A DNA stretch of 64,000 bases from an uncultured Candidatus Saccharibacteria bacterium. GTDB taxonomy: Bacteria > Patescibacteriota > Saccharimonadia > Saccharimonadales > Saccharimonadaceae. Under the pieces are notes generated by a model, which did not search any database, was not told the origin of the DNA, and saw only the letters and a program-made list of their open reading frames with translations. Shown in pieces: positions 16,591 to 51,090 of the stretch (position 1 is the stretch's first letter; each line of letters starts with the position of its first letter). The position numbers were made by a program, and so were the translations under genes. The DNA is taken from NCBI GenBank assembly GCA_964407015.1, contig CAYOTX010000001.1, positions 1,708 through 65,707 on the forward strand, in the 5' to 3' direction.

Positions 16591-18258
16591 TTATCTGGCG
16601 ATACAACGGAGAGTGGCCCCCCGTCGTCTATCCGTTGCATCTTTTATAAATATGCCATTCTGGGTGAAAGCGAAATCAAATGCACTATTATTATTAATGG
16701 TAGATGACCAGTAAAGCCCCTTTGCATCTAGCCCGTTAATAGACGCGCCATCTCCTATGTACCCAGACTTAATGAAATATAGTGGAGGAACTAAGACATC
16801 TGCGATAACATTCAAATTATATAGGTATTTTAGCCTAGCGAACTCATTAGTGGAATTAACCATGGCTTCAGATTGATTAGATATAGTGGACAATCTCCAC
16901 CCTTTAGGGCAAATAGAATTTTTGGGGTTATTAGATACATTATTTGATGTATCTTGTGTTAATGTGGAAGAATCATTGCTAGCAATTGCTACAGTCCAGT
17001 TATAATAATTACCCAATGATGAATGGCCAGTGTTAGTGCTATCGGTTTTATTGGCAGAATATGGTACGGTATTACTATCATTCCAGTCGTCCGCCCTAAT
17101 ACCCTCAAAACCCATAGTCTTCGCAGACATTGCTGGCGTCCAAGTAGTAATACCAGTATTCACATCGTAAGTATATCTACTCGCATAAGCGCCGACAAGC
17201 GAGTGGTCCGTAAGATCGGTATCGTTTGAAGTAAGTGATTTCATCACTTCTTGGCCTTGTTCGTTTGTATAAGCGACTAAATCTAAACCTAAGTTTTGCG
17301 TCATCCAGCAATGCCCATCTTGCAACTTGGCCACCCAGTATAACTTATTATCTCTAATATCTATTAGTTGAGTTTGTGAGGCTTCATCATATGAGCCTAC
17401 TGAATTACAAATATATGAGTTCATGTCTTGCATAGTATAATAAGTGCCGCTTTCTGTGTTAACTGGATTTTTGCCCTGTGATGCGTAAGCTTCGTTAAAG
17501 CCTAAATGGTTGTTGTTGCTACTGGGATGCACCATCAAGTACTTCACTTTCCCATTATAAGTACCAGCAGGCTGTACAGAACTAGCATAGACATCATAGG
17601 TAGTAGCAAAGTATGAACCAGTAATATCAGTATCTATAGTCATATTAGTACCAGAAGCTCTAGAGGCTACTAGTGTATAGTTATTTGGTACTACATTATA
17701 ATTATCGTAGTTATTTACGATAGTAGGAGGAGTAATAGCAATACTAGCACCAGTATCAGGATTAAGACCTGTGCCTATACCAGGAGCTAGTTTCATACCC
17801 CAAGATGATGGAGTAAGACTACTAGAGCTTCCTTCGTCATAAATACCAGTCTTAATATTATAACCATCATTATTACTACTAATTAAATCTGTATTACCAT
17901 CTATGTTATTACTACTACCTATAGCATAGATACTATAGCCATTATTATCATTACAATAAGCATTAACTCTAGTACTACCAATATCTACTGTATGAGTACC
18001 AGCATTAACATTAACTGTATGGGCTCTATCTATACTACTGCTCAAAGTACAAGCAGAAGAAATGGAGATGCTGAGGCTGTCTGAGCTGGTGTTATTATCT
18101 GCGGAGGAATGAGGAAGAGATAAGACTAGGGTAGAAATAATGAGCAATGGGATTAAAATAAGTAATATATTCCGGAATGAATAATAGAAGAAATCTGTGT
18201 AACTGCTTGCTTTATGATCTTTTTCTTTTATTTTAGATTTTGTAGTTCTATAGCCCAT
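16591..18258 (-). CDS. Secreted FISUMP (Fib_succ_major)-type protein A
   Basis: Signal/TM, WxL-like beta domain, DIRDNKLYWVAKLQDGHCWMTQNL, ICPKGWRL, YWSST...RC; SD AAGGTG fits ATG at 18258 (ORF track start 18267). Confidence 0.8.
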   Translation of the reverse strand: MGYRTTKSKIKEKDHKASSYTDFFYYSFRNILLILIPLLIISTLVLSLPHSSADNNTSSDSLSISISSACTLSSSIDRAHTVNVNAGTHTVDIGSTRVNAYCNDNNGYSIYAIGSSNNIDGNTDLISSNNDGYNIKTGIYDEGSSSSLTPSSWGMKLAPGIGTGLNPDTGASIAITPPTIVNNYDNYNVVPNNYTLVASRASGTNMTIDTDITGSYFATTYDVYASSVQPAGTYNGKVKYLMVHPSSNNNHLGFNEAYASQGKNPVNTESGTYYTMQDMNSYICNSVGSYDEASQTQLIDIRDNKLYWVAKLQDGHCWMTQNLGLDLVAYTNEQGQEVMKSLTSNDTDLTDHSLVGAYASRYTYDVNTGITTWTPAMSAKTMGFEGIRADDWNDSNTVPYSANKTDSTNTGHSSLGNYYNWTVAIASNDSSTLTQDTSNNVSNNPKNSICPKGWRLSTISNQSEAMVNSTNEFARLKYLYNLNVIADVLVPPLYFIKSGYIGDGASINGLDAKGLYWSSTINNNSAFDFAFTQNGIFIKDATDRRRGATLRCIAR

Positions 18259-18293
18259 ATGCATCACCTTGTTTAATTATCTTTATCTTTGTG

Positions 18294-18466
18294 ATGCCAT
18301 TTTGTGTAAACGGGGTATATTACAAAAATGGCACCGCAAGGGGTGCAATTACTAACAGCCAACATCCGAATTCGAACACAGCCGTAAAGTTCCTCGCGGT
18401 ACCATTTTTAACTGTGTTCGAGCTATTAAAATAACTCGGAATTTATTTAGTTGTTAGTAATTGCAC
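18294..18466 (-). ncRNA. Structured 5' leader RNA, copy 1
   Basis: 15-bp P1 GTGCAATTACTAACA/TGTTAGTAATTGCAC 4 nt after TGgTATAAT; invariant 23-mer at 18324-18346. Confidence 0.7.
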
Positions 18467-18509
18467 TTTTATTATACCATGCTAATGATTTTTGTGGTAT
18501 AATTTAGTT

Positions 18510-18580
18510 ATAAAAAGAGAAGCCCTCTAGGAAGACTTCTCTGGGTTGTTTTGATTAGGCTTTAAGGCCTAATCTTTTTT
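18510..18580 (+). ncRNA. Candidate antisense sRNA (two hairpins)
   Basis: TGgTATAAT at 18495-18503; hairpin agagaag..TCTAGG..cttctct; terminator gattaggc/gcctaatc plus T6. Confidence 0.6.
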
Positions 18581-25046: not shown

Positions 25047-25095
25047 ATTTTTATTTTAACATGTAGCGTGCTATAATCGTAACATTAACAATTTA

Positions 25096-25184
25096 ATATC
25101 AAGAAGGGGCGAGGGAACGGCCTGGTGACCCCCTACCAACCTAGCTAGACCAAGGTGGTAAATCCGACCAGAAAGGAAAGATAT
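25096..25184 (+). promoter_or_regulatory. SAM riboswitch (SAM-I superfamily)
   Basis: ATATCAAGA..GAGGGAACGGCC..TGA.CCCC..CAACC...AAGGTGGTAAATCC...GATAT directly upstream of metK. Confidence 0.9.
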
Positions 25185-26145
25185 GTTCTATAGAACTGCG
25201 GAGAGCGTTTCTCCGAAACACCCAGATAAATTATGTGACCAAATAAGTGATGCGATACTGGATGCGTATTTTGAAAAAGATCCAAATGCGCGCGTAGCGG
25301 CAGAGGCTTGTGGCGGGCACGGCGTAGTGTTTGTAACTGGTGAGATTACATCTGAGGCGGATGTGGATATTCCGGCCATAGTGAAACGAATTGCCGGAGA
25401 TGGCATAGAGGTGCATACCAAAATTGTGAAGCAGTCGCCAGAAATTGCGCAAGGCGTAGATACTGGTGGGGCGGGCGATCAGGGCATAATGATAGGCTAT
25501 GCGTGTGATGAAACGCCGGAAATGTTGCCGCGCGAAGTAGTGCTGGCACGTCGGCTAAACCAGTATATATATGAAAAGTACCCATTTGATGGCAAAACGC
25601 AGATTACAATAGCGCCAGATGTAAGTATTGATTCTATTGTGGCGAGTTTTCAAAATGCACCACGTGAAGAATTAGAGAAATTAGTGCGAGAATTTATAGA
25701 AAAGGAAAAGTTGACTGGGAAGTTAGAACTGCATATTAATCCGGCTGGGGATTGGCAACAAGGTGGCTTTGATGCGGATACGGGTCTGACCGGGCGGAAA
25801 CTAATAGTAGATAACTATGGGCCACGGGTGGCGATAGGTGGAGGATGCTATTCTGGTAAAGATCCATCTAAGGTGGATAGGAGTGCAGCGTATATGGCAC
25901 GGCGAATTGCGGTGAATTATTTAAGAAAACGCAAGGCGCATGAAGTGTTGGTGCGGCTAGCATATGCGATTGGCTATGCTGAACCTTTGGAAAAAACGGT
26001 AATCGTAGATGGTAAAGCTGAGGAAATAGAAGGATACGATCTTACGCCAAATGGAATTATAAAATATTTGGATTTGAAGCGACCAATTTACGAAAAAACT
26101 GCGCGGTGGGGGCATTATGGCGAAGGGTTCGACTGGGATAAATAG
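25183..26145 (+). CDS. metK: S-adenosylmethionine synthetase (compact form)
   Basis: AESVSPKHPDKLCDQISD, GAGDQG, DTGLTGRK, GKDPSKVDRSAAY. Confidence 0.97.
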   Translation: MFYRTAESVSPKHPDKLCDQISDAILDAYFEKDPNARVAAEACGGHGVVFVTGEITSEADVDIPAIVKRIAGDGIEVHTKIVKQSPEIAQGVDTGGAGDQGIMIGYACDETPEMLPREVVLARRLNQYIYEKYPFDGKTQITIAPDVSIDSIVASFQNAPREELEKLVREFIEKEKLTGKLELHINPAGDWQQGGFDADTGLTGRKLIVDNYGPRVAIGGGCYSGKDPSKVDRSAAYMARRIAVNYLRKRKAHEVLVRLAYAIGYAEPLEKTVIVDGKAEEIEGYDLTPNGIIKYLDLKRPIYEKTARWGHYGEGFDWDK

Positions 26146-37764: not shown

Positions 37765-39741
37765 TTAGCCACTTCTCATACATCGCACAGAGAGCCCGTA
37801 GAACTTCTTACTGTCGATGCAACTGTTGCCGGTGCCCCAGAAAGTCAGGTACCACGCATGGTTATTGGCGTACCGGGTGCTAGACCACCAGTACCCACCA
37901 CTCCCGACATTACGTTGAGAACCGGAGTAGAAGTTGCCAACAGTGTTCAAAGAACCATTATTAACTAGCGCCGTTCTAAACGTACTGTTTTTAATTTCTA
38001 AATCGCCTGAACCATACGTCAGCAATGCCCACCCAGCCGGACAAATAGAACCTAGCGCATAGCCATCGTTCGTCAATGTAGCGTCAGTATCTGACGTCGG
38101 ATCTGAGCACTGGTACGGATTCGCTATGGCTGCATACCAGTTATAGAAATACTCACCATTTTGATTACCTACAGTCATTATAGCTTTACAATAATAATCC
38201 TGGTCGGCAGAAGCCCAAGCTTCCGTAGGCAAAGTAAATGAAGTTTTTGTAACGCTTTTATTAGTATTTGGGTCTATATAAGTTACACCACCAGCCTTGA
38301 TGTCTGAATCGCCAGTCTTCAAAGTCATTCCACTTGCTACGGCTAAGTTGCTTAATATAAAGCAGAAACTGCTGTTACCACTAGTAATATAATTTACACC
38401 GTAGGCCTTACCGTCTCTAGCATCGTACTTTGTGCCAGCACAGCTTGCACTAGTGTTGGTAGTGGCTTGCAATGTATTAGCATTAAAGTTCCAAATGGCA
38501 TAGTATGTTATATCGTCTGTAGGAGTTATTCCTGTTGTTACAGCTGCGCCGGTGCCATCCGCCTTTACATTCCATTCTTTAAAACTAGTATAGCAATCTG
38601 CTCCGTTACACTGAGTATTTGGTTTAGTTATTGTAGGTAAAGTAGTCACTGTCCCATATGTTACGGTACTATCTGGCAAGTTAGTTCCAGAATAATTACT
38701 ATCCCAAGTTACCATATATGGGCGCCACATAGCGTAGAGTGTAATATTTGTATTACTAGTAGTTTGGTTTAATGTATATGCTAGATTACTTCCATCACCA
38801 TTTGGGTTGTAAGTAGTACCACTACAACTATCTATATTGTCAGTTTCTACTGGTTGCATACTACACCAACCTAGGAACTTACGACCAGTCCTAGTTGGCA
38901 CTGTGTTTGGTAATGTTACTATAGTATCATTTGTGCTACTGCCTAAGTCGTCTGGTAGGTTACTTACCGTCCCTTCTTCTGCATTACCTTTATTGAAGGT
39001 TATTTCATACGGTATAGGATTAGCCACAGCAGTAATTACAAAAGTATTAGTATATGAACCTTTAGGGATATCTGTACCTACTCTAGCGCCTATAGCCATA
39101 TTGTAGTTGTTAGCGGTTTCTGGGTTAGCTGTATCTGTAGCATCTAAAGTGATGGGTGTGGTAGTGGTAGGAGCTGGTAAGTAGTTAGTACTTTCTGATG
39201 TGCTTAGTTTGGTAAGTGTATAGCCCCAAGTATTGTTATACTGAATATTACTGTTACCCGAGAAGGCTTGCTCTGTAATACCGGCACTAGTTACCCCCTC
39301 TACCGTACCAATAGAAGAAATCCTGCCTATAATAGTCTGTTCATTGCCTTCTCCTGATGTTTGCACTAGATTAGCTGCATCTGCTTCATCACTACTAGCT
39401 GCTATACCTAGTGTATAGCCAGCAAAGTAGTTAGTAGTAGCACTTATGGTACTACTAGCAGTATCAGACTTAGCAAAAGTACCTGTGGTAGAGATTGGTT
39501 TTAAGTCTAAAGAAATACTATTAGCTATAGCGACATTGAGAAATGGGTCTGTAGCAAAGGTAGGATTACCAAATATAAATAAGCTAGACATTAGGCTGAC
39601 GGTAACCAACAATAGAATAGATGGGCAAAATAAGCGAGGTCGTAGTGCCAACGGAAGAAGTGAAAAGCCGTTGGCACTAAAACACCGCTTATTATTATCT
39701 TTATTTGCACCTATACTGTTATTTTGTGAAATATATTTCAC
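37765..39741 (-). CDS. Secreted FISUMP-type protein B with InlB-B/Flg_new-like repeats
   Basis: Signal, WxL-like domain, two F.GW/F.EW...LYA.W repeats, ICPAGW, WWSST...SVRC. Confidence 0.8.
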   Translation of the reverse strand: MKYISQNNSIGANKDNNKRCFSANGFSLLPLALRPRLFCPSILLLVTVSLMSSLFIFGNPTFATDPFLNVAIANSISLDLKPISTTGTFAKSDTASSTISATTNYFAGYTLGIAASSDEADAANLVQTSGEGNEQTIIGRISSIGTVEGVTSAGITEQAFSGNSNIQYNNTWGYTLTKLSTSESTNYLPAPTTTTPITLDATDTANPETANNYNMAIGARVGTDIPKGSYTNTFVITAVANPIPYEITFNKGNAEEGTVSNLPDDLGSSTNDTIVTLPNTVPTRTGRKFLGWCSMQPVETDNIDSCSGTTYNPNGDGSNLAYTLNQTTSNTNITLYAMWRPYMVTWDSNYSGTNLPDSTVTYGTVTTLPTITKPNTQCNGADCYTSFKEWNVKADGTGAAVTTGITPTDDITYYAIWNFNANTLQATTNTSASCAGTKYDARDGKAYGVNYITSGNSSFCFILSNLAVASGMTLKTGDSDIKAGGVTYIDPNTNKSVTKTSFTLPTEAWASADQDYYCKAIMTVGNQNGEYFYNWYAAIANPYQCSDPTSDTDATLTNDGYALGSICPAGWALLTYGSGDLEIKNSTFRTALVNNGSLNTVGNFYSGSQRNVGSGGYWWSSTRYANNHAWYLTFWGTGNSCIDSKKFYGLSVRCMRSG

Positions 39742-39761
39742 TGCTCACCTTTCTGTTTTAC

Positions 39762-39919
39762 TTCGCAGTGCCTACCTCCTATAAAAATGGCACCGCAAGG
39801 GGTGCTAATTCTCATCAACCTAATCAAGTTTATCAGGCAGTGATACCTTACGGCGCCATTTAACTGTCTGATAAACCTACATTATAAAAATAACTTGATT
39901 TATTAATGAGAATTAGCAT
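39762..39919 (-). ncRNA. Structured 5' leader RNA, copy 2
   Basis: P1 TGCTAATTCTCAT/ATGAGAATTAGCA after TACAAT; invariant 23-mer at 39783-39805. Confidence 0.7.
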
Positions 39920-40073
39920 TTTAATTGTACCGTGCTTTTGAAATATACACAAGGCTTTTTGCCGAAACTCAACGATTTTTCATTGACTTTTTGGCTGAAG
40001 TGTGGTATAATTAGGGTATAGGGCTAGTGACAAGGGCTCTATCTTTTTTTAGTTTTTATGTTATAATAGGGTT

Positions 40074-49109: not shown

Positions 49110-50831
49110 TCAGCGAGCGAGGCAGCGGATTGAACCTCCAATGAATCTGGCTTCAGGAACGGCTGGTTGCCCAGTGCCAGAATTAAAAAATAAATAATAA
49201 GCGACAGAACTGTCTTTAGTTGTAGTAGACCAATAAGTGCCACTCCGCAGAGCTCCATTTAGTGATTTACTTGCATAAAAATAGCCAGATCTGACGAGCC
49301 AAGTGGGTGATTTTCTGATATTGTTAAACCCGTTTGCGGCATAAGTATCGTCAGTTTTAGATGTGGTGATACCTTGTTGAAACAATAGCTCCCCAAATTC
49401 ATAAACGGATTTGTCACTATTGGTTGCTATGGGTAATCGCCAGCCTTTTGGGCAAATAGAGTTAGCGGCATTGGTGTAGTTAATATTAAAGCCATTTGAG
49501 TTATTAGAAGCAATAGCTACTGTCCAGTTATAATAATTACCTACATGATAATGTCTACAGTCTGCTTTTGCATGATCATCGTCTATGCATGCTTGTAGGG
49601 AAGTATATTTTATGTCGTCAGCGGTAGTATTCGAGGCGTAAAAATATGTATCCCCACCTTCAGCAGAAGTTGGAGCAACATTGTTTCTGTTCCATCCATC
49701 TGCCGTATTATTATCATAATCTACAATTATATTCCCTGTAGTAGTCCCCGGATTCCAAGTCCATACACCATTATTTTCGCTATAACCATAGGCTGTACTG
49801 TAAATGCCACTACCGGATGCGGTAGTACTAATATCTGTATTCTCTGAGGTTAATGGGCTTGTATTTGGACCATTGATGTCTAAATCTAGGTTTTGTGTCA
49901 TCCAACAATGGTTATCTTTTAGTTTAGTGACATAGTAGATATTATGGTCTCTAGTGTCTACTAATCTAGCAGTAGTAGATTCACCGGTATTAAGTACAGA
50001 GTTGCAAATATCACTAGTCATATCTTGCATAGCATAGTATGAGCCTTCGCTATCTTGATATGCTTTCTGTTTGCCAGCCATAGCAAAGGCCGCATCTATG
50101 TCATTAATAGTACTAGGTGCATTAGTGTTTGGATGAGTTAGGACGTACTTTACTTTACCAGTATATGTACCAGCTGGCTGTGCAGAACTAGCATATATAT
50201 CATAGGTAGTAGTAAAGTATGAACCAGTAATATCTAAATCTACATTTGGGTTCATATTAGTCCCAGAAGCCCTAGAAGCTACCATAGTATAGGTATTAGG
50301 GACTACATTATAGTTATTATAGCCATTATTGGCGGTAGGGGGAGTACGCTCACTTTCAGACCCTGTGCCAGTACCGGGCGTAATCTTCATTCCCCAAGAA
50401 GATACAGTACTTCCACTACTATATATACCAGTCTTAATATTATAGTCACTACTTAGACCACTTACTACTAGGTCTGTATTGCCGTCTATATTATTACTAT
50501 TACCTACAGCATATATATTATAGCCATTATTATCATTACAGAATACCCCTACTTTAGTAGTACCAATATTCTCTCTATGTAATCCACCACCTTCAAAAGT
50601 AGCTACATGTGGCGTTAATTCTGTGGCGCTAATTGTACAAGAAACAGGAAGGTTAAGAGTGACACTATCTACTCTAGTGGCATCGCCAGAAACGCTGCCT
50701 TCTGCGGAGCTATGCGGCAAAGATAAAATCAATGCGGAAACAATAACTAGGGGAATACTAATGAAAAGAATATTACGGAAGGCTTTATAGAAGAAGTCTG
50801 TATAGTTGTTTGTTTGGCTTTTGTGACTCAT
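49110..50831 (-). CDS. Secreted FISUMP-type protein C (close paralog of A)
   Basis: YTDFFY..FRNIL...SLPHSSA; DTRDHNIYYVTKLKDNHCWMTQNL; ICPKGWRLP; YWSTT...IRC. Confidence 0.8.
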   Translation of the reverse strand: MSHKSQTNNYTDFFYKAFRNILFISIPLVIVSALILSLPHSSAEGSVSGDATRVDSVTLNLPVSCTISATELTPHVATFEGGGLHRENIGTTKVGVFCNDNNGYNIYAVGNSNNIDGNTDLVVSGLSSDYNIKTGIYSSGSTVSSWGMKITPGTGTGSESERTPPTANNGYNNYNVVPNTYTMVASRASGTNMNPNVDLDITGSYFTTTYDIYASSAQPAGTYTGKVKYVLTHPNTNAPSTINDIDAAFAMAGKQKAYQDSEGSYYAMQDMTSDICNSVLNTGESTTARLVDTRDHNIYYVTKLKDNHCWMTQNLDLDINGPNTSPLTSENTDISTTASGSGIYSTAYGYSENNGVWTWNPGTTTGNIIVDYDNNTADGWNRNNVAPTSAEGGDTYFYASNTTADDIKYTSLQACIDDDHAKADCRHYHVGNYYNWTVAIASNNSNGFNINYTNAANSICPKGWRLPIATNSDKSVYEFGELLFQQGITTSKTDDTYAANGFNNIRKSPTWLVRSGYFYASKSLNGALRSGTYWSTTTKDSSVAYYLFFNSGTGQPAVPEARFIGGSIRCLAR

Positions 50832-50866
50832 ATATGTATTACCCTGTTTAAGTTTCTAGTCATTGT

Positions 50867-51048
50867 GGCGCCATTTTGTGTAAACGGGGTAGTAATACAA
50901 AAATGGCACCGCAAGGGGTGCAATAACAAGTTATTTATACCAGCATAGAGCCCATACAAAACTTGGTCCTTACGGCGCCGTTTTATTTTATATGAACCCT
51001 ATTATGGTATAAAAATGCGCTGGCTTATTAAATAAATTGTTATTGCAC
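50867..51048 (-). ncRNA. Structured 5' leader RNA, copy 3
   Basis: P1 GTGCAATAACAA/TTGTTATTGCAC after TGcTATACT; invariant 23-mer at 50899-50921. Confidence 0.7.
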
Positions 51049-51090
51049 TTTTAGTATAGCACAATTATTTTGCTTTGTGTGAAAAAATGG

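Follow-up and report, generated by a model that had tools for sequence, protein, structure and literature searches.

A structured RNA leader family with switch-like architecture ahead of surface-protein genes in gut Saccharibacteria

The described RNA elements that come closest to the leader reported here are attenuators of the trp type, with their 1:2/2:3/3:4 pairings, and pseudoknotted riboswitches such as the fluoride (crcB), ZTP, preQ1, and SAM-II riboswitches. These lie at the 5' end of the transcript, directly after the promoter. Two conserved pairings of one segment exclude each other, a 3' tail is paired with a hairpin loop (an H-type or "HLout" pseudoknot), a U run follows, and the Shine-Dalgarno sequence (SD) may be masked. 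The pseudoknot helices of the four riboswitches are 4-8 bp long. In the hok fold-back and in the L5-L13 kissing loop of the cobalamin riboswitch, a far loop or end is base-paired to part of the expression platform, which holds the mRNA in one state. In the leaders of E. coli ompA, B. subtilis aprE and ermC, and S-layer genes, which include mRNAs of abundant surface proteins, the 5' end sits in a stable helix. Knowledge of gene regulation is close to nil for Saccharibacteria and other CPR bacteria, which have few recognisable regulators and depend on attachment to host bacteria.

The leader that we studied shares these arrangements, its predicted 5' end lying in a helix too, and the segment with two partners is its tail. 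Unlike the pseudoknots of the fluoride, ZTP, preQ1, and SAM-II riboswitches, its pseudoknot is about 15 bp long and closes a rod of about 39 bp through a hinge. Where attenuators have a nested hairpin at the U run, the leader has the pseudoknot itself, and the alternative partner of the tail lies 3' of the U run, a position that excludes the role of a classical antiterminator. It also differs from attenuators and riboswitch platforms in being present many times on one paralogous gene family and in having no Rfam match; we recognised neither a conserved junction that looks like a ligand pocket nor a leader peptide in it. Compared with the ompA, aprE, and ermC hairpins, it is far larger, and it adds a covarying long-range pseudoknot, an invariant tail with a U run, and an alternative partner. 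Its architecture is not that of hok or of L5-L13, the sequences are unrelated, and it stands before up to 32 paralogous genes in one tiny genome.

We also considered the T-box (RF00230). Its hallmarks are a Stem I with a specifier loop, an antiterminator with a 7-nt UGGN bulge, and aminoacyl-tRNA synthetase or amino acid genes downstream. The loop of one copy, UGGUACCGCG, resembles the T-box consensus, and the leader has a long stem with a functional distal loop. We rejected this candidate: that copy has no RF00230 match even at E < 10, the family consensus of the loop (AAUGGCRCCGNRAGG) pairs contiguously with the tail and leaves no 7-nt bulge, there is no specifier loop, and the downstream genes are neither aminoacyl-tRNA synthetase nor amino acid genes but encode FISUMP surface proteins or adhesins.

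The leader family and the genes behind it

The window is the whole stretch of DNA that was analysed, 64,000 nt from an uncultured Candidatus Saccharibacteria bacterium (C1:1708-65707 of an 828-kb assembly that is 98.8% complete). Run look-ups place this organism in animal gut metagenomes. An earlier note on the window, made from its letters alone, described three leaders on the minus strand, and they are where it placed them: P1 begins at 18466, 39919, and 51048, each time 4 nt after a -10 hexamer (TATAAT, TACAAT, and TATACT), and the invariant 23-mer GCACCCCTTGCGGTGCCATTTTT occurs exactly three times, with 0 expected in shuffles (Table 1). What the note took for a family of three is much larger. 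The 18-nt core of the tail has 32 exact occurrences in the whole 0.83-Mb genome, with zero mismatches, and there are more than 200 copies across relatives. Many of the 32 leaders are at contig ends, so this repeat breaks the assembly. The Logan contigs from bovine-gut metatranscriptomes cover only the repeated tail block and break there.

The stems cannot be aligned by sequence (MAFFT with RNAalifold on the 32 copies missed the rod), and we used a covariance model (CM) of a single sequence with iteration. The first model, from one copy, collected 28 copies in the own genome, and the second was built from those 28. The leader family occurs in only one genus of Saccharibacteria from animal guts, whose genomes have between 0 and 32 copies; some of the records are labelled Ca. 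Nanosyncoccus. Of the 36 other genomes in this genus, 21 match the second model, at 1 to 22 copies per genome. Outside the genus, a single copy turned up in another family of the order, and 23 further families gave no match. A strict loop...tail pattern, run on one genome per GTDB species, matched more than 114 stretches. Among the 80 matches listed, all but one (79) are MAGs of Candidatus Saccharibacteria, recovered from the guts of ruminants, pigs, mice, and other hosts; the exception is an "Agathobaculum sp." contig from an isolate assembly. A complete promoter and leader (72.7 bits) is present at L187, on the 73-kb contig NZ_JBQKJR010000011.1 of "Agathobaculum sp. LCP25S3_E8," an assembly labelled as a Firmicute; the surroundings have 44% GC over 1.25 kb. 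This locus suggests a Saccharibacteria contig within the Agathobaculum assembly, from co-culture or contamination, rather than transfer. There is also a weak, partial match in genome G015 (L054:322-445, plus strand; 38 bits, model positions 1-134, tail absent), on the opposite strand from a full copy and about 60 nt away, which may be a diverged or decayed leader.

The 32 own copies are built alike. An extended -10 promoter (TGnTAYAAT) is followed, after 4-5 nt, by a long hairpin, then by the tail with AUUUUU, a downstream block, and a gene for a membrane-anchored protein of 490-690 aa. The promoter, rod, loop, tail, and U run are found in every copy; further 3', the leaders fall into lineage-specific classes. 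Among the 32 own copies, a conserved block sits between the AUUUUU run and the surface-protein gene. The -10 hexamer lies 4-5 nt ahead of the model start in 126 of 175 copies, and a TG extension is present in 119 of the 175. In nearly all copies, the predicted 5' end coincides with the start of P1 or lies only a few nt from it.

Table 1. Features of the three leader copies in the window
Feature	Position	Strand	Basis
Copy 1, extended -10 promoter TGgTATAAT	18471..18479	-	sequence
Copy 1, rod hairpin (P1-P2-U-rich bulge-P3-apical loop), at or next to predicted transcript start	18343..18466	-	MFE fold, CM matches, covariation
Copy 1, apical-loop arm of pseudoknot, AAAAAUGGUACCGCGAGG	18392..18409	-	duplex with tail, -28.9 kcal/mol
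Copy 1, invariant tail CCCUUGCGGUGCC and AUUUUU run	18324..18342	-	
Copy 1, region 3, downstream second tail partner, ACACAAAAUGGCAUCAC	18291..18306	-	
Copy 1, SD AAGGUGA and probable ATG (18258)	18256..18270	-	
Copy 1, gene for 558-aa FISUMP protein	ORF 16591-18267	-	
Copy 2, -10 hexamer TACAAT	39924..39929	-	
Copy 2, rod hairpin (apical-loop arm 39846-39861)	39802..39919	-	fold, CM matches
Copy 2, tail and U run	39783..39801	-	
Copy 2, region 3, second tail partner, GGCACUGCGAAG, with AGGAGG inside	39761..39772	-	duplex, -18.5 kcal/mol
Copy 2, SD AAAGGUGAG and GTG start	39739..39752	-	
Copy 2, gene for 658-aa FISUMP/Flg_new protein	ORF 37765-39741	-	
Copy 3, -10 hexamer TATACT	51053..51058	-	
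Copy 3, rod hairpin (apical-loop arm 50968-50984)	50918..51048	-	fold, CM matches
Copy 3, tail and U run	50899..50917	-	
Copy 3, region 3, ACACAAAAUGGCGCCAC	50865..50881	-	tail-duplex table
Copy 3, SD CAGGGUAA and ATG start (50831)	50829..50845	-	
Copy 3, gene for 573-aa FISUMP protein (TIGR02145, 53.8 bits, above cut-off)	ORF 49110-50831	-	

Most copies precede the gene of a surface protein with a FISUMP (Fib_succ_major, TIGR02145) domain. The note had the leaders heading FISUMP adhesin genes, and the proteins agree: those in the window match the domain with E = 6e-7, 2e-4, and 4e-14, one of them above the curated cut-off, and 103 of 128 downstream ORFs belong to one BLAST-linked family whose members have N-terminal signal anchors and end in the FISUMP domain. 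These genes do not need the leader everywhere. FISUMP genes are present in 37 of 41 genomes of the genus, including four without leaders (G011, G012, G017, and G020), and the leaderless genes have a promoter, a plain 5' UTR of 15-40 nt, and an SD. Because congeners have FISUMP genes without it, the leader is a lineage-specific addition, with a putative regulatory role, that expanded with the paralogs; it is not a general requirement. In the four genomes just named and in G031 (loci L234-L245), the FISUMP genes have short, unstructured 5' UTRs directly behind TGnTATAAT; G020 alone has 45 FISUMP domain matches and zero leaders.

The earlier note did not recognise a known riboswitch class, and nor does Rfam 15. 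At the gathering score, the whole window gave no leader match, only two tRNAs and a SAM riboswitch elsewhere. At E < 10, copy 1 gave only miRNA-like noise, and these spurious matches reflect a hairpin that involves a segment downstream of the U run (region 3, below). Eleven further leader loci gave nothing at E < 0.01. A literature search brought up no relevant paper that links Saccharibacteria to structured RNAs, riboswitches, untranslated regions, or small RNAs. This family of structured leader RNAs is real and strongly supported, is built like a switch, and has no public description; its mechanism, as given below, is a proposal.

The SAM riboswitch (SAM-I, RF00162; 55.6 bits, above gathering) is at 25093-25187 on the plus strand, directly 5' of ORF 25183-26145, so classical riboswitches do occur in this reduced genome. 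Just upstream of the copy 1 promoter, at 18516-18574, are two back-to-back canonical hairpin-plus-U terminators, one per strand, which give an example of what ordinary intrinsic terminators look like in this genome.

The rod, the pseudoknot, and the second partner of the tail

The same fold recurs in every copy: P1, an A-rich internal loop, P2, a U-rich bulge on the 5' strand, P3, and an apical loop with the conserved sequence given above, with an MFE of roughly -45 to -60 kcal/mol. P1 is 15-20 bp in the own genome, and the internal loop is A-rich on its 5' side. Across 166 copies, the rod is 39 bp long (interquartile range 37-42), with about 24 bp below the bulge and about 15 bp above it, and the bulge is strongly one-sided, with median lengths of 15.5 nt (5' strand) and 0 nt (3' strand). 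That the leaders fold alike despite different stem sequences, as the note had it, is upheld by covariation. In the 28 own-genome copies, all 39 of the modelled pairs show compensatory changes, 93.7% of cells are paired (33-42% with slid partners), and the covariation score is 0.94 (about 0.08 when slid); the alignment was fitted by the CM, so these figures lean towards the modelled structure, but an effect of this size leaves us in no doubt about the predicted rod. The MFE stems of the 32 copies contain 170 G-U pairs against 11 A-C 1x1 mismatches, so the selected fold is that of sense-strand RNA and not a DNA palindrome.

A U run (TTTT) lies in the bulge of 114 of the 166 copies. This run forms the loop of a small side hairpin with varying stems in about a quarter of copies (34 of 142, compared with 3 in shuffles). 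The U run and the A-rich loops are the only conserved unpaired elements of the leader. The linkers are short: about 3 nt from P3 to the pseudoknot arm (L1), about 6 nt back to P3 (L2), and about 1 nt from P1 to the tail (L3). As only 1 nt links the base of the 39-bp rod to the tail, loop and tail cannot meet unless the rod folds back. In such a model, the one-sided bulge would be the obvious hinge, and the helices would form a closed ring, in which the 5' end of the transcript sits at the junction of P1 and the pseudoknot. We tried the correlation of P1 and P3 lengths (rho -0.50) as a test of ring geometry and dropped it: the correlation comes partly from how the bulge is assigned, and only the total length of the rod is clearly constrained.

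The helix between the loop and the tail, also proposed in the earlier note, is 15 bp long and covaries across genomes. In 73 copies from about 20 genomes, 94.9% of its cells can pair, and double (compensatory) changes, 95 cells in all, occur at 11 of its 15 pairs; slid controls gave 2-6 pairs and 3-16 cells. For example, columns 125/221 are G-C (43) or A-U (23), columns 128/219 are A-U (38) or G-C (26), and columns 117/228 are U-A (38) or C-G (17). The mean duplex energy is -26.1 ± 2.0 kcal/mol, compared with -9.3 for shuffled loops and -20.9 for tails of other sequence types (p = 1e-27). Within the own genome, the tail is identical in 32 of 32 copies and the rods are fully diverged. All of the loop variants there fit the invariant tail by way of transitions (28 one-sided changes stay paired and 3 cells are broken), and these differences are wobble-compatible only on the sense strand, which is the asymmetry that had led the note to RNA pairing. 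In G023, individual copies have their own compensated changes in loop and tail. Together, the identical tail and the compensated changes imply that pairing in cis is the primary constraint, rather than a fixed sequence that is recognised in trans. We also tried a tetraloop, CC-GNRA-GG, as an account of the apical loop. It fits the own genome (GUAA, GCGA, GAAA, and GCAA) and fails in relatives, which have ACGA, AUGA, or UCAA and keep the pairing with the tail, so the pseudoknot explains the variation better.

The tail has another partner. According to the earlier note, the invariant block could instead fold into a 5-bp hairpin, GCACC with GGUGC, that resembles a terminator. A terminator scan does pick up this hairpin, but only 78% of its cells are paired, and it covaries weakly. 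The idea of an alternative partner stands, and the better-supported one is a segment 3' of the U run, which the note had only in its entries for copies 2 and 3. This segment, region 3, starts at a median of 20 nt past the end of the model, and its duplex with the tail reaches 18 bp. Examples are UGGCACCGCAAGGGG at L052, where 15 of 15 positions are complementary to the tail, and AACGGCACCACGAGGGG at L054. In 143 copies, the best duplex between tail and downstream sequence averages -19.5 kcal/mol, against -13.0 for shuffled downstream sequence and -18.1 for tails of foreign types (p = 5e-8). At variable positions of the tail, the pair table shows U-A/C-G, C-G/U-A, and A-U/G-C exchanges; the table is derived from duplex optimisation and leaves unpaired cases uncounted. 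In the G029/G036 lineage, the downstream segment pairs with the 3' end of P1 as well, and the two covary (GAACACCC and GGGUGUUC; GAACGCCC and GGGCGUUC). Region 3 is not obvious in some lineages, for example in several copies of G023. Two mutually exclusive, conserved pairings of one segment, here with the loop and with region 3, are the signature of a switch, as in attenuators and riboswitches.

How the leader might act

We lean towards the view that the leader is a cis-acting switch in which the pseudoknot state leads to premature termination, to a hidden ribosome site, or to both. The leader RNA would be made from its own extended -10 promoter, and its first 125-150 nt or so would fold into the rod, with the 5' end paired. 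The one-sided, U-rich bulge of about 16 nt would then serve as a hinge, so that the apical loop could fold back, pair over about 15 bp with the tail directly after P1, and close the RNA into a ring-like pseudoknot. In this OFF state, the helix of loop and tail next to U5 may act like the stem of an intrinsic terminator, and region 3 would be left free to mask the ribosome-binding site in many copies. In the ON state, something would keep the loop from the tail, polymerase would read through, the tail would pair with region 3, and the ribosome site would open. If there is a trigger, the agent that blocks the loop could be a protein, an RNA in trans, a ligand, or simply the kinetics of folding. 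The genes behind the leader are adhesin-like rather than metabolic.

As for the output, we favour termination: forming the pseudoknot would end transcription prematurely, with the upstream arm of the terminator supplied by the distant loop. The U5 run adjoins the loop-tail helix and is invariant (162-166 of 166 positions), yet only its first two or three U's have conserved A partners in the flank of the loop. Since U5 is more conserved than those partners, it is kept for a reason beyond pairing in the pseudoknot. An invariant U5 after a strong helix appears to fit the U tract of an intrinsic terminator, and such a helix running into U5(G/A)U looks like one. The nested hairpin before the U run has only 5 bp; the strong helix there, at -26 kcal/mol, is that of the pseudoknot. 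Yarnell and Roberts reportedly found in 1999 that a duplex upstream of a U tract can release RNA polymerase even if it is formed with an oligonucleotide in trans, which would make a terminator of this kind plausible in principle. Our literature search turned up no precedent for a pseudoknot-type terminator, and we know of none. The specific picture of a "pseudoknot terminator," in which the upstream arm comes from about 100 nt away, the tip of the rod folds in through the U-rich hinge, and the ring closes at the RNA exit channel, is a bet that we would expect to lose. If it were true, a single factor that masks the loop, or stochastic folding, could act on all of the roughly 30 leaders that share loop and tail, and so switch every adhesin of an epibiotic CPR bacterium, a repertoire that takes up about 6% of the genome, jointly or gene by gene.

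Might the switch be purely translational? The U run would then serve only in the pseudoknot helix, or in a U-A-U triplex that includes the U-rich bulge, and the choice between the pseudoknot and the hairpin of tail and region 3, in full-length mRNA, would set access to the SD. There is some evidence for this. When we folded from the tail to the start codon, the mean accessibility of the SD was 0.56 with the tail free and 0.49 with the tail locked, and it opened by more than 0.15 in 41 copies and closed in 13 (p = 3e-7). The difference is present in all three copies in the window (0.69 and 0.39 for copy 1, 0.80 and 0.59 for copy 2, and 0.78 and 0.42 for copy 3), and the tail and the SD, GUGAGGU, are alternative partners for region 3, ACGGCCUCACG, in some lineages. 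But the computed effect is modest on average and missing from many copies, conservation is higher for the U tract than for its pairing partners, and in 9 of the 32 own leaders a GC-rich, hairpin-rich insert of about 150 nt lies between the conserved leader or region 3 and the SD. Because such inserts are tolerated, we argue that the core decision and its output are upstream of them. We think that a switch acting on translation only is improbable. A constitutive role, with no on/off decision, seems doubtful too, if a little less so: the paired 5' end or the ring could protect the highly expressed mRNAs of these surface proteins from decay that depends on the 5' end, or the leader could be a site where RNase III matures them. 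Hairpins at the 5' end are established stabilisers (ompA, aprE, and ermC), P1 nearly always begins at the predicted 5' end or a few nt from it, and the long duplexes (24 + 15 bp in the rod and up to 18 bp between tail and region 3) would suit RNase III, which is encoded in 39 of 41 genomes of the genus and keeps processing or stability in play as a rival. On the other hand, a stabiliser needs no covarying 15-bp helix between loop and tail, no exclusive second partner, and no invariant U5, and the leaderless relatives manage their FISUMP genes without it.

It seems very unlikely that the element works as DNA, whether as a palindrome of the MITE or REP kind or as an inverted repeat at which recombination or inversion gives phase or antigenic variation of adhesins. 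It is true that it is present in many copies and breaks the assembly at many contig ends, that loop and tail form an imperfect inverted repeat in the DNA, and that paralogous families of surface proteins often recombine. However, the strands are strongly asymmetric in their G-U and A-C counts, the loop-tail differences allow wobble pairs on the sense strand only, the element has a fixed place between promoter and gene and always the same orientation, and we saw no copy with the segment between the repeats inverted. The both-strand symmetry and the variable orientation and context of MITE or REP elements are not found here.

If the leader is a switch in cis, as we prefer, it would give a handle on how epibionts control or vary their adhesins, and it would be a candidate for an unusual mechanism of attenuation, with a long pseudoknot in place of the terminator hairpin. 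One RNA design stands before up to 32 surface-protein genes, and its structure is among the best supported by covariation without experiments. It could also serve as a natural regulatory part for the emerging genetic tools of Patescibacteria, and it is a clean new family for Rfam.

The inserts that precede the SD are of three sequence types, for example C2:5690-5925(-), C3:26092-26270(+), and C11:19290-19440(+); loci that have them include L048, L033, L035, L024, L036, L045, L029, and L041. None of them matches Rfam. They look like small mobile or modular RNA elements.

As to partners in trans, we ruled out binding of Hfq to the AU5G motifs, as there is no Hfq in the 41 genomes of the genus. 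A search of the own genome for a trans partner with tail-like or anti-tail-like sequence found only one hairpin, at C20:6176-6232 on the plus strand. It stands alone in an intergenic region, with no rod or gene attached. Its 5' arm, CCCUUGCGGUGUC, is tail-like, its 3' arm, AAUGGCACCGUAA, is loop-like, and a U run follows. This hairpin is probably the remnant of a leader, and possibly a small RNA.
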